Positions 26,001-29,000 of a stretch of DNA of 64,000 nucleotides are shown piece after piece. The position numbers were made by a program. The stretch is from the IMG/VR virus record IMGVR_UViG_2721755646_000011; one strand, 5' to 3'. Origin of the DNA: a virus. Its lineage: Duplodnaviria > Heunggongvirae > Uroviricota > Caudoviricetes. Numbering within the stretch: the first letter of the stretch is position 1; every line of letters starts with the position of its first letter.

Positions 26001-29000
26001 CTGACTCGCTGGCAAGGTAAGAGAGCAGTGTTGTGACGCCTGTGGCTTCTGCACCGGAAGGCGATGACGGGCGCACCTCTGATACTGTCGATGATGCCCC
26101 CGCGTTTAGCGCCACTCTTCCCGCATGGCGCAAAATCGCCGTTGCCAGACGGTCGGAAATAATCCCGCGGCGAGCCCAGGCGCTGAAATGGCTCGCCCTG
26201 TCCTGTGACGTCCAGGTGGCTGAGCTGTCACGCCATTTCGAACCGTAATATCCGATACCCGGAATGTCCGGGTCTTCTTCCGGTTTGTTCGTCGGCACAT
26301 TCACCCCGTTCTCATCGGTCATGAACGGTACGAAATGGATATTCTTTTCCGTTTTGTTTTTGTAGCTGCCGTACACCGTCTGGTACGAGGATTCGTTCTT
26401 CTGCTTCCAGAAATACGTCGTATCTCCACATATCCAGGGAACACCGCCAGCAGAGCCACCGACGCACTGACCTGCCATATCCGCCAGGTCTGCACGGAAT
26501 TTATCAACCAGCGCACCAAACTGTGCTGCGTGATTTGCCGGCGTACCGCCAAAATCAAATTCCCCCTGCATCCACACCACGGCAAACAGCACATTTTTCG
26601 GATTCTTCTTCAGTGCTGCTTTTGTTCGACCGATAAGGTCCTTATACAGCGGCTTGTCCACACCCCAGCGGGTTGAATTCTCCGAGGCACCACTCGCGTC
26701 ACTGTATGTGCCATCAGCTCCGGTGGTGAACGCTGAACCACCACGACAGCACGGAACCAGCAGAATGCCCGCATTCGCCGGTATAAACGGCAGCAATTTT
26801 TTGGCGATATGCAGCCCCTGCCCCACGGTTCCGTACTGCCCCTTTGACAGGTCCGCTTTCGGATGGTTAAGGCGGCTCATGTCCTGCACATCATGCAGAC
26901 AATGGTCCGCCGGAATGATGTCGTTATATTTACAGGCGACACCGCCCGGTGTCACCGTACTGCGACGCGCCAGCTGCTTAATGCGCGGGTCCGGACGGTC
27001 ATATGTCTCCGGCAGCGGAAGACCTTCACCATACGACATGCCGTTTGACTGCCCTGCCAGAACCACAACAAAGTAATACCCGGGGTCGCTGGTGGCGCTG
27101 ATTACTGCACCTTCTCCACCTGTCGGCTTCACCACAACAGGTGTGCTCACATCACCTTCTGCGACAATCGCCTGAATAAGTGCTGCGCCATCATCCGTAT
27201 ACGAAGAAAACGGCCCACCATATGGTTGCCATCCTTCACGAATTTTTTGCGCAAGTGCATCAGCAAGGTCTGACGGCGACGCCGCCCTGACAACATCATA
27301 ATGTTTAAATGTCATTATTCCTCCCGGCCGGGATAGTGTATTAAATCAGATATGGAGTGGGCTGTAGTCCGGAAGCCTGAATGACACACGGGGACTACAG
27401 CCCAAGAAATGAAAAAAGGCCACGCAGTTGCGCAGCCTGATAAACCCTGGTTAAAATCCACACGATAACAACACAACAATATCAGTATCTCATGCTATTG
27501 CCCGAACCCATTCGGGCATTTTTTTACCCATAAAAAAGCCCCTCCGGAGAGGGGCATGTTTGCATGCACATTCTTTTTCTTGCATGGTGCCGGGTGCCTC
27601 CCGGTGAATTCAGTACCAGCACCTGAATCCGCGATTACCCCATATACCTGGTTGCTGATTGCCCCTCCGCACAGGGGGATTCACCATGCCAGTTTCTTTT
27701 AACAAACTCCCCGCAAACCAGACAACAGTCAACCGCCTGAATTGTGAGACATTTAAAAAAAGGCCCGCAAAAGCGAGCCAGGGAAAATAAGTGTGGCGCG
27801 TTGTACTGGATTCGAACCAGCGACCTGGCGATTATGCGTCGCTCGCTCTCACCACTGAGCTAAAGGGCCGGGCGCAGGATAATAACGGTACGTAACTAAT
27901 CCTGCAATATCATCCGTTCTGACTGACTAAATCCTGTACTTCCCTGACCGTCTGCTCAAAACGTTCAGTCTCCAGCTCAACGCCAGTTGCACGACGCCCC
28001 AGCGCCATCGCGGCTTTGACTGTCGAACCCGACCCCATGAAGAAATCTGCAACCAGGTCACCCGGACGACTGCTCGCACTGATTATCTGCTGCAGCATTT
28101 CTGCCGGTTTTTCGCACGGATGTTTCCCGGGATAGTACTGCACCGGTTTATGCGTCCACACATCCGTGTACGGCACCTGCGCCGTCACGCCAAAATACCG
28201 CCGCAGATGTTTATATTCACTCTGCAGTTCCGCATACTGCCGGTTCAGTGAAGTATACGTCTCCAGCAGCTGGTGGTGGGGCTTTTCCAGTTCACCGCGC
28301 TGATGCTTCTCTTCTGCCACCCGGGCAAACAGCGCCTGTAATTTCAGATAATCGCTTTCGTTCGGTAGCTGCCACTGACTGGCACTGAACCAGTGCGACA
28401 CCATGTTTTTCTTTCCTGTGGCATCCACTATCTGTTTTGCCGTTATCCCCAGGGCAGCACGCGCATCACGAAAGTAAGAAATCAGCGGAGCCATCACATG
28501 CTGTTTCAGTGCCCTGCCCTTCGCCTCATACCCGGCATCTTTCGGACGATACGGCCCCTGATAATGTTCCGCGAACAGAATGCGCTCTGTGGCGGGGAAA
28601 TACGCCCTCAGGCTTTCCTTGTTGCACCCGTTCCAGCGTCCGGACGGCTTCGCCCAGATAATATGGTTCAGCACACTGAAGCGTTCACGCATCATGATTT
28701 CAATGTCAGATGCCAGGCGATGGCCACAGAACAGGTAAAGACTTCCGGCAGGTTTCAGCACCCGCCAGAACTGCGCCAGACACTGGTCCAGCCATTTCAG
28801 GTAATCCTCATCACCCGTCCACTGGTTATCCCAGCCCTCAGGCTTCACTTTAAAGTACGGCGGGTCCGTGACTATCAGGTCAACAGAATTTTCGGGTAAC
28901 GACCGGATAAATTCCAGGCAGTCGGCGTTGATTAACTCACAACTGGATATTTTTACAGTATTAAACATGGATCATTAAGCCTGTCTCTGATAGGCTCATA

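Follow-up and report, generated by a model that had tools for sequence, protein, structure and literature searches.

A predicted ileZ/argO hybrid tRNA pseudogene beside an unoccupied moron site in a Stx-phage-family prophage

Introduction

The question raised by this locus is whether a phage late region that is organised as in Stx-converting phages, and that has a degenerate tRNA-like gene and no toxin genes, is what remains after the loss of a toxin, and what the tRNA-like gene itself represents. A first-pass annotation of the window (the whole stretch of DNA analysed, 64,000 nucleotides) had proposed for positions 27316-27910 an empty toxin slot and a tRNA remnant, both left by the loss or replacement of a toxin/tRNA cassette. 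The evidence presented here makes it very probable that this interval is instead the ordinary "moron site" leader of a late operon, that the operon is part of a lambdoid prophage which belongs to the Stx-phage family, lacks the toxin and lies in the chromosome of an EHEC-type E. coli, and that the tRNA-like gene of the interval is a dead hybrid of ileZ and argO. The architecture of the interval is already known.

Gene order of the late region

All the relevant genes of the late region lie on the minus strand. Pfam searches and translations gave the order Q, terminators, DNA methylase, tRNA-like gene, a stretch without a coding gene, NanS-p-type esterase, S21-type holin, SAR-type endolysin and Rz/Rz1, the protein-coding components and the terminators being as follows.

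29543-30364, minus strand: late antiterminator Q, 273 aa (Pfam PF03589, E = 5e-52)
29445-29509, minus strand: two intrinsic-terminator-like hairpins downstream of Q (29509-29493 and 29460-29445; terminator scan), candidate tR'
27910-28968, minus strand: N6/N4 DNA methyltransferase, 352 aa (Pfam PF01555, E = 7e-44)
25369-27315, minus strand: predicted NanS-p-type sialate O-acetylesterase, 648 aa (Pfam SASA PF03629, DUF1737 and DUF6645)
25054-25233, minus strand: DUF1378 gene (Pfam/translation)
23473-24765, minus strand: lysis cassette (Pfam PF04971, PF00959, PF03245)
24475-24765, minus strand: P21-type (S21-type) holin S (Pfam/translation)
23937-24470, minus strand: lysozyme of the SAR-endolysin type, with a Gly/Ala-rich SAR-like N-terminus, MSRKLRYGLSAAVLALIAAGASAP
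23473-23958, minus strand: Rz (Pfam/translation)
23535-23720, minus strand: Rz1, embedded in Rz (lipobox LVVSAC)

This is the order that had been read in the first pass, from Q and tR' to the pinholin, SAR endolysin and Rz/Rz1, with the qualification that it is their position 3' of Q that suggests a tR' function for the two hairpins. The Q region is identical in strain TW14359, where RefSeq labels the product "antitermination protein". The esterase gene lies upstream of the lysis cassette and its product has a central SASA domain flanked by an N-terminal DUF1737 and a C-terminal DUF6645, as in NanS-p. The presence in the window of a second prophage terminase was considered and rejected, the two 707-aa ORFs compared being unrelated to each other.

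The likeness to Stx phages that had been pointed out earlier is also borne out, as the late region is syntenic with that of 933W (AF125520), both showing the order Q, tRNAs, sRNA region, nanS-p, holin (S), endolysin (R) and Rz, with 88.7% nucleotide identity over the segment that begins 42 nt beyond the stxB2 stop and extends through nanS-p (L0105 in 933W). In contrast to 933W, the window has a different Q module (273 aa, PF03589), a methylase gene between Q and the tRNAs, and AgvB in place of AsxR as the anti-sRNA.

Origin of the hybrid tRNA-like gene

Alignment with the intact cassettes of Nil3 (AM051322), PhiR49_2 (PV340570) and 933W showed that the tRNA-like gene consists of the 5' two-thirds of ileZ joined to the 3' end of argO. 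In place of Ile-CAT, Arg-TCG and Arg-TCT tRNAs in tandem, the window has ileZ fused to argO, and argN is gone; the description of the tRNA-like gene as a remnant, in this case of an ileZ-argN-argO cassette, was therefore correct. The elements of this array, flanked by the tRNA-cassette promoter upstream and an intrinsic terminator downstream, are listed below.

27879-27907, minus strand: predicted tRNA-cassette promoter pT (TTGCAG, 17 nt, TATTAT), by identity with the pT annotated in AF125520
27794-27869, minus strand: ileZ/argO hybrid, predicted tRNA pseudogene (alignment with Nil3 and PhiR49_2, ARAGORN, Rfam, pairing and MFE)
27869-27821, minus strand: ileZ-derived part, with anticodon CAT and G33 at 27837 (alignment)
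27820-27814, minus strand: crossover microhomology CTGGTTC (alignment)
27813-27794, minus strand: argO-derived part, comprising the remaining T arm, the 3' acceptor strand and CCA (alignment)
27756-27779, minus strand: intact argO terminator, GGCTCGCTTTTGCGGGCC followed by a T run (terminator scan, 27779-27762), aligning with the one that the 933W annotation places upstream of stx

When aligned with Nil3 and PhiR49_2, the window is identical to intact ileZ up to GGTCG and to argO from TTCG on, with a 174-column gap between them that runs from one T arm to the other, wholly within the tRNA array. The alignment thus places the crossover of a 174-bp deletion in the 7-bp CTGGTTC common to the ileZ and argO T arms, an event that took away the last part of ileZ, argN in its entirety and the first two-thirds of argO. 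It could be accounted for by slippage during replication, or by unequal recombination, involving the near-identical T arms in tandem. Apart from these 174 bp and from position 33, which is G in the window and U in 933W, the array hardly departs from that of 933W: the 5' part of ileZ, the 3' end of argO and the terminator are near-identical, and the pT region is identical in all 61 positions (window 27920-27860). The promoter was assigned through this identity with the 933W annotation and not through a σ70 promoter scan, which found nothing in 27250-29700 because the -35 hexamer of pT matches at just 3 of 6 positions. With pT, the 3' end of argO and its terminator all preserved, the deletion lies within the tRNA array and left the toxin site untouched.

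A second, independent hybrid keeps T33 and has its crossover in the neighbouring AATCCAG; it occurs in APEC O2-211 and in three IMG/VR contigs. The existence of two independent hybrids marks the T-arm repeats of this phage tRNA cassette as a recurrent deletion site. The G at position 33 is completely linked to the window-type deletion, being present in all 22 IMG/VR copies of that hybrid, while no intact ileZ with G33 was found in IMG/VR, against at least 120 with T33. Two copies of the hybrid have an additional G-to-A change in the D loop.

The toxin site and the sRNA pair

The synteny of this late region with that of 933W and the absence of stx would both agree with the loss or replacement, in a single event, of toxin and tRNA genes as one cassette, after which a degenerate tRNA and an empty toxin slot of 470 bp would remain, and repeated loss of stx from chromosomal prophages is one possibility raised in a recent preprint (bioRxiv 10.64898/2026.05.13.724894). 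The absence of stx, claimed from the beginning, was upheld: tblastn searches with StxA2 and StxB2 and a blastn search with the 933W stx cassette returned chance matches only in the 64-kb window (best E = 0.12), with no stxA and stxB downstream of the tRNA cassette. Alignment with the ileZ-argN-argO-stx region of 933W, which had been proposed as a check, placed the stx2AB position as well as the origin of the hybrid, and located the toxin site at a point, and not across the gap that had been taken for it. Homology to 933W stops at window position 27756 (933W locus 3409) and restarts at 27751 (locus 4745), and the intervening 1,335 bp of 933W, compared with about 4 bp in the window, hold stx2AB. 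The gap itself measures 478 nt from the tRNA remnant to the esterase start codon, and its description as empty holds for coding genes but not for RNA genes, as it has full-length matches to two known sRNA families.

27751-27756, minus strand: unoccupied stx/moron insertion point (933W alignment)
27526-27718, minus strand: STnc100-family sRNA, overlapping EcOnc27 of Stx2 phages (Rfam RF02076, 144.5 bits against a gathering score of 47, model positions 1-206 of 206)
27555-27538, minus strand: terminator of STnc100 (terminator scan)
27463-27524, plus strand: AgvB anti-sRNA (Rfam RF02702, 96.5 bits against a gathering score of 56, 62 of 62 positions equal to the consensus)
27499-27518, plus strand: terminator of AgvB (terminator scan)
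27438-27417, minus strand: further terminator-like hairpin (terminator scan)
about 27397-27347, minus strand: 12-bp inverted repeat GGGCTGTAGTCC...GGACTACAGCCC, just upstream of the esterase ribosome-binding site (sequence reading)

STnc100 and AgvB are convergent, with their terminators 20 nt apart, and form at the moron site a pair of the kind described by Tree et al. (2014) 3' of PR' in Sp3, 4, 5, 9, 10, 11, 15 and 17 (PMC4104026). In Stx2 phages, EcOnc27/STnc100 is reported to lie just downstream of stx2B (PMC12711010, PMC12370729). In O157 Sakai, AgvB acts against GcvB and promotes growth in bovine rectal mucus, and the CACAACA motif defined for it in the same work (Tree et al. 2014, PMC4104026), which pairs with the GcvB seed, is present in the AgvB of the window. 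From its identity with the tested copies, the sRNA pair is the portion of the interval expected to be functional; AgvB would sponge the host sRNA GcvB, relieving the repression of targets such as dppA. A close described counterpart is the agvB1 locus of Sakai O157:H7 Sp10 (PMC4104026), which shares with the window the same kind of moron-site leader, the STnc100/AgvB convergent pair upstream of the esterase gene and an equal AgvB score (96.5 bits). Unlike the window, Sp10 has a degenerate argN lying between intact copies of ileZ4 and argO4, a different antiterminator gene, and a slot filled by a TciA/TerB-like moron.

The insertion point is occupied in other relatives by TciA/TerB-type or DUF3927 genes. 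A survey of 63 intact cassettes showed that the unoccupied junction is the commonest state (27 of 63) and that stx occupies it in 7, so that the lack of stx at this place is not evidence of toxin loss. Moreover, in the stx-less phages Nil3 and PhiR49_2 the tRNA flanks, terminator, empty junction and STnc100 region are all colinear with those of the window (92-95% identity), and both phages carry, unlike the window, three intact tRNAs according to ARAGORN (72.5, 50.4 and 70.1 bits with Rfam in Nil3). No stx scar was found at the window junction, which is compatible with an earlier presence of stx and does not prove that it was never there. Excision through the ATCTG found at both ends of the 933W cassette was examined as a source of such a scar; the window junction, TTTAAATGTCTCAC, differs from the expected recombination product, an observation that speaks neither for nor against toxin loss. 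The earlier supposition that a toxin once filled the site finds no support in the junction.

A combined loss is already contradicted as a single event and, more generally, appears very improbable: both ends of the deletion fall within T arms, those of ileZ and argO, the preserved 3' end of argO and its terminator are immediately followed by what in 933W comes after stxB, the gap with STnc100 and AgvB/AsxR-type sRNAs is also present in Stx phages, and the empty junction accompanies intact tRNAs elsewhere. As an ordinary moron-site leader, the interval follows Q with its terminators and the methylase and reads, in minus-strand order, as pT, dead hybrid tRNA, argO terminator, unoccupied moron/stx point, STnc100/EcOnc27-type sRNA, AgvB (plus strand, convergent), nanS-p and lysis genes.

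Distribution of the hybrid and its linkage to agvB

The 595-bp interval matched 203 records at 99% identity or more, and its full length was 100% identical in all 25 genomes listed, including O157:H7 TW14359 and EC4115 and O111:H- 11128. In the RefSeq copies of the locus, the neighbouring antiterminator, methylase and DUF6645 esterase genes are the same as in the window, and although the lysis region further downstream is slightly different, nothing differs within the interval. The exact hybrid junction was present in 161 of 5,426 complete E. coli genomes, in 22 IMG/VR contigs and in 2 metagenome contigs, and in none of 50,697 phage records. In the literature searched on the phage ileZ/argN/argO tRNAs and on tRNA genes upstream of stx, no description of a hybrid tRNA was found.

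AgvB accompanied the window-type hybrid at 15 of 19 assessable loci and intact cassettes at 1 of 64, in a non-random sample made up mostly of IMG/VR prophages from isolate genomes and probably rich in EHEC. Subject to that composition, the simplest explanation for the spread of the hybrid would be hitchhiking with the agvB module, to which it is closely linked. Sp10 of Sakai, where AgvB1 resides, was considered as the source locus and discarded, given its intact ileZ and argO, its degenerate argN and its TciA/TerB moron.

With promoter and terminator both preserved, the hybrid probably continues to be transcribed. It is very unlikely, though conceivable, that it gives rise to a stable tRNA-like RNA, about 115 nt long, which has taken on a new role; this may be that of a decoy for tRNA-modifying or tRNA-cleaving enzymes (e.g., TilS or anticodon nucleases) or of an Hfq-independent regulator; if so, selection, and not hitchhiking, would be the cause of the tight linkage to agvB that is seen in several Q and flank haplotypes. 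In a weaker version, the loss of the phage rare-codon tRNAs would itself be selected in resident prophages, and the second independent hybrid and the degenerate argN of Sakai Sp10 would then be recurrent examples of it.

Defects of the hybrid as a tRNA

The first-pass annotation had recognised in this gene the D, anticodon and T arms of a tRNA, together with acceptor strands unable to pair and a G at position 33, and each of these points was confirmed. The Rfam tRNA model (RF00005) matched the hybrid locally at 27804-27863, with 37.3 bits against a gathering score of 29, and the match covers the three arms (model positions 7-64 of 71, with 100% posterior) and leaves the acceptor stem outside. 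The 5' strand GGCCCTT and the 3' strand ACAACGC form 2 of 7 acceptor pairs, compared with 7 of 7 in both parents, whose full-length Rfam scores are 72.5 (ileZ) and 70.1 (argO). The MFE z-score is -0.54, against -4.03 for ileZ, so that the hybrid folds no better than its shuffled versions. ARAGORN, suggested earlier as a check and run over the whole 64-kb window, called no tRNA. U33 is almost universal in tRNAs, and window position 27837 provides a G instead. The joining of the ileZ 5' acceptor strand to the argO 3' acceptor strand, plus the U33G change, leads us to infer that the hybrid would be neither processable nor chargeable as a tRNA. An alternative acceptor helix, between an upstream GCGC and the 3' GCGC, was discarded, both because it needs a bulge of 9 nt and because other copies of this hybrid have different upstream bases (TTCTGCTCC).

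RefSeq/PGAP annotates the hybrid as "tRNA-Met" of 71 nt (27864-27794), with no pseudogene flag, and a tRNA-Met stands at this site in the TW14359, HB6 and APEC O2-211 loci examined and under every full-length match listed. That label implies a working non-canonical tRNA, either an AUA-reading Ile tRNA or a Met-like one, and the intact arms, the Rfam score above gathering, the conserved promoter and terminator and the identity of the sequence across many genomes could be cited in its favour. However, the PGAP feature starts 5 nt short at the 5' end with respect to canonical numbering, the Rfam match is local with about half the score of either parent, some copies have acquired a further D-loop mutation, and the identity among copies fits the recent spread of a single agvB-linked allele. 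Considering also the acceptor stem, G33, the fold and the silence of ARAGORN, a working tRNA is extremely doubtful. Next to no chance is given to an assembly artefact, in which tandem tRNAs with similar T arms would have been collapsed, because, although the deletion falls exactly between short repeats, where mis-assembly could occur, the identical junction with its linked G33 recurs in 161 complete genomes as well as in the IMG/VR and metagenome contigs, and a 7-bp repeat at a distance of 174 bp is far below read length.

Significance

The locus has little weight as a discovery, given that it is identical in many sequenced EHEC genomes and that the sRNA pair was described in 2014. Its value lies, first, in annotation: the unflagged "tRNA-Met", which all the copies inspected or listed carry, makes phage tRNA counts too high and, with the junction present in 161 complete E. 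coli genomes, could mislead codon-usage analyses. Second, the Stx/moron insertion point, which falls between STnc100 and the terminator of argO, can be defined with a precision of a few bases. Third, the window-type hybrid offers a convenient marker for the agvB-carrying module. As a separate observation on annotation, the RefSeq copies carry a partial pseudo-CDS on the strand opposite STnc100.

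Late genes and the tRNA-like gene

Pfam matches and translations confirmed the order in which the first-pass annotation had read the late genes, all of them encoded on the minus strand.

Features of the late region (window positions)
29543-30364, minus: Q antiterminator (PF03589)
29509-29493 and 29460-29445, minus: terminator-like hairpins 3' of Q (terminator scan)
27910-28968, minus: N6/N4 DNA methylase (Pfam/translation)
27869-27794, minus: tRNA-like gene
27526-27718, minus: STnc100, full-length Rfam match (144.5 bits; gathering score 47)
27463-27524, plus: AgvB, convergent with STnc100 (96.5 bits against 56; 62/62 positions as in the consensus)
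25369-27315, minus: NanS-p-type esterase with SASA, DUF1737 and DUF6645 domains (Pfam)
25054-25233, minus: DUF1378 (Pfam)
24475-24765, minus: P21-type holin S (Pfam/translation)
23937-24470, minus: lysozyme with a SAR-like N-terminus (MSRKLRYGLSAAVLALIAAGASAP) (Pfam/translation)
23473-23958, minus: Rz, with Rz1 embedded at 23535-23720

ARAGORN called no tRNA over the whole 64-kb window, and the Rfam tRNA model gave only a local match (27804-27863, minus; model positions 7-64 of 71; 37.3 bits, compared with full-length scores of 72.5 for intact ileZ and 70.1 for intact argO), which takes in the D, anticodon and T arms and leaves the acceptor stem outside. The two defects first noticed in this gene, unpaired acceptor strands and a G at position 33, are real: direct pairing gives 2/7 acceptor pairs, against 7/7 in each of ileZ and argO, and the base at 27837 is G. 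Its folding energy is no better than that of shuffled sequence (MFE z-score -0.54; ileZ, -4.03).

The origin of these defects became apparent when the window was aligned with two stx-less phages carrying intact cassettes, Nil3 (AM051322) and PhiR49_2 (PV340570), in each of which ARAGORN finds three tRNAs. From the promoter through ...CCAGGTCG the window equals ileZ exactly, G33 excepted, while from TTCGAATCCAGTACAACGCGCCA onwards it equals argO exactly, the two parts being separated by a gap of 174 alignment columns. The crossover falls within a 7-bp CTGGTTC common to both T arms, bounded 5' by an ileZ-specific G and 3' by an argO-specific G, and the deletion took away the ileZ 3' end and the entire argN, together with two-thirds of argO on its 5' side. 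The acceptor strands fail to pair because the deletion joined the 5' strand of ileZ (GGCCCTT) to the 3' strand of argO (ACAACGC). The gene is thus the remnant it had been taken for, an ordinary deletion pseudogene, and our literature search found no description of this ileZ/argO hybrid. With the pT promoter annotated in the Stx phage 933W (AF125520) conserved at 61/61 positions and the argO terminator (27779-27762) intact in the terminator scan, the remnant is probably still transcribed.

The toxin site and the sRNA pair

Searches of the 64 kb with StxA2/StxB2 (tblastn) and the 933W stx cassette (blastn) returned chance-level matches only, in agreement with the reported absence of stx. Homology to 933W falls into three blocks: 28020-27806 (upstream region and ileZ 5' part), 27825-27756 (argO 3' end with terminator) and 27751-25300, which starts 42 nt past the stop codon of stxB2, extends across nanS-p with 88.7% identity and substantiates the proposed synteny with Stx phages. 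Since homology breaks at 27756 and resumes at 27751, the 1,335-bp stx2AB cassette corresponds to this point and not to the 478-nt gap between remnant and esterase start codon, which had been suggested as an empty toxin slot and holds STnc100 and AgvB. The site shows no sign of earlier occupancy; among the IMG/VR matches listed, a non-random sample, 27/63 intact-cassette loci with an assessable downstream side have the same unoccupied junction and 7/63 carry stx. In relatives this point is occupied by other morons: PPyecE_EH1910 and Sakai Sp10 have TciA/TerB-like genes there, and APEC O2-211 has DUF3927. Joint loss of toxin and tRNAs, as originally suggested, does not fit these data: the tRNA deletion is confined to the array and unconnected with the toxin site.

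This very arrangement was described by Tree et al. 2014 (PMC4104026): in Sp3, 4, 5, 9, 10, 11, 15 and 17, convergent sRNA pairs 3' of PR' are flanked by the moron coding sequence and, further downstream, by a conserved ORF. In Sp5 the sRNA downstream of stx2B is AsxR; AgvB is found in Sp10 and Sp17. According to the same study, AgvB blocks the seed of GcvB and gives better growth in bovine rectal mucus. STnc100 overlaps EcOnc27, directly downstream of stx2B (PMC12711010, PMC12370729). Each sRNA in the window has its own terminator, and the gap is a conserved and presumably functional sRNA region. The stretch separating AgvB from the esterase start (27347-27438, minus) has, just ahead of the nanS-p ribosome-binding site, a third terminator-like hairpin, AGGCTGCGCAACTGCGTGGCC with a T run after it, and a 12-bp inverted repeat, GGGCTGTAGTCC...GGACTACAGCCC; these could point to a further small transcript or to a structure that regulates nanS-p.

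Spread and decay of the hybrid

An IMG/VR scan permitting G or T at position 33 recovered 22 copies of the hybrid, all with G33, whereas intact ileZ has T33 in at least 120 cases and G33 in none. Two copies bear a further D-loop G-to-A change, the flanks form at least three haplotypes, and in strain HB6 the hybrid is preceded by another antiterminator, without the methylase. An independent second ileZ/argO hybrid, which retains T33 and whose crossover falls in the neighbouring 7-bp AATCCAG, was found in APEC O2-211 (L007, NZ_CP006834.2, 3021-3096) and three IMG/VR contigs (L152-L154), and argN, the middle tRNA, is degenerate in Sakai Sp10. Together with the further decay, these cases indicate that erosion of the cassette is recurrent. 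The prophage context of the second hybrid is different: a DUF3927 gene fills the slot, and TolA-like genes follow downstream. In Sp10 (L155, NC_002695.2, 19781-19880) the middle of argN is swapped for divergent sequence in which no tool sees a tRNA, and argO4 has compensating T-stem changes (CAGTGG...CCACT).

The exact junction occurs in 161/5,426 complete E. coli genomes and in 0/50,697 phage records. Carriers include O157:H7 TW14359 and EC4115 and O111:H- 11128, all identical (100%) over the 595 bp of 27316-27910; such RefSeq loci in EHEC genomes are the closest matches to this interval, whose elements all belong to known families.

AgvB accompanies the window-type hybrid in 15/19 assessable loci and intact cassettes in 1/64, in a biased sample. 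This strong linkage suggests that a neutral hybrid pseudogene has hitchhiked with a beneficial AgvB module. That a still-transcribed tRNA-like RNA gained a role, or that tRNA loss was itself selected, appears very improbable.

Annotation and other elements

At the TW14359 locus PGAP annotates a 71-nt 'tRNA-Met' (27864-27794; 1752662-1752732 in NC_013008.1), truncated 5' and lacking a pseudogene flag. Of the copies in the 161 genomes, all those listed or inspected bear this RefSeq/PGAP annotation. A partial pseudo-CDS ('hypothetical protein, incomplete') is also annotated on the strand opposite STnc100.

Elsewhere in the same prophage, full-length Rfam matches mark two further RNAs.

Further RNA matches (window positions)
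32775-32949, minus: sok antitoxin RNA (111.7 bits)
39680-39731, plus: DicF (76.7 bits)

In related loci the hok/sok module adjoins hokD. Two ORFs of exactly 707 aa (20209-22332 and 61849-63972, both minus) had raised the idea of a duplicated terminase, which was rejected: they are unrelated by BLASTP and their equal length is a coincidence. A weak Esr41-like Rfam match (25292-25369, plus; 28 bits, far under the gathering score of 102) lies antisense to the late genes just past the esterase stop codon, in the region between esterase and holin where the PasA/PasC sRNAs have been placed (bioRxiv 10.64898/2026.05.13.724894).
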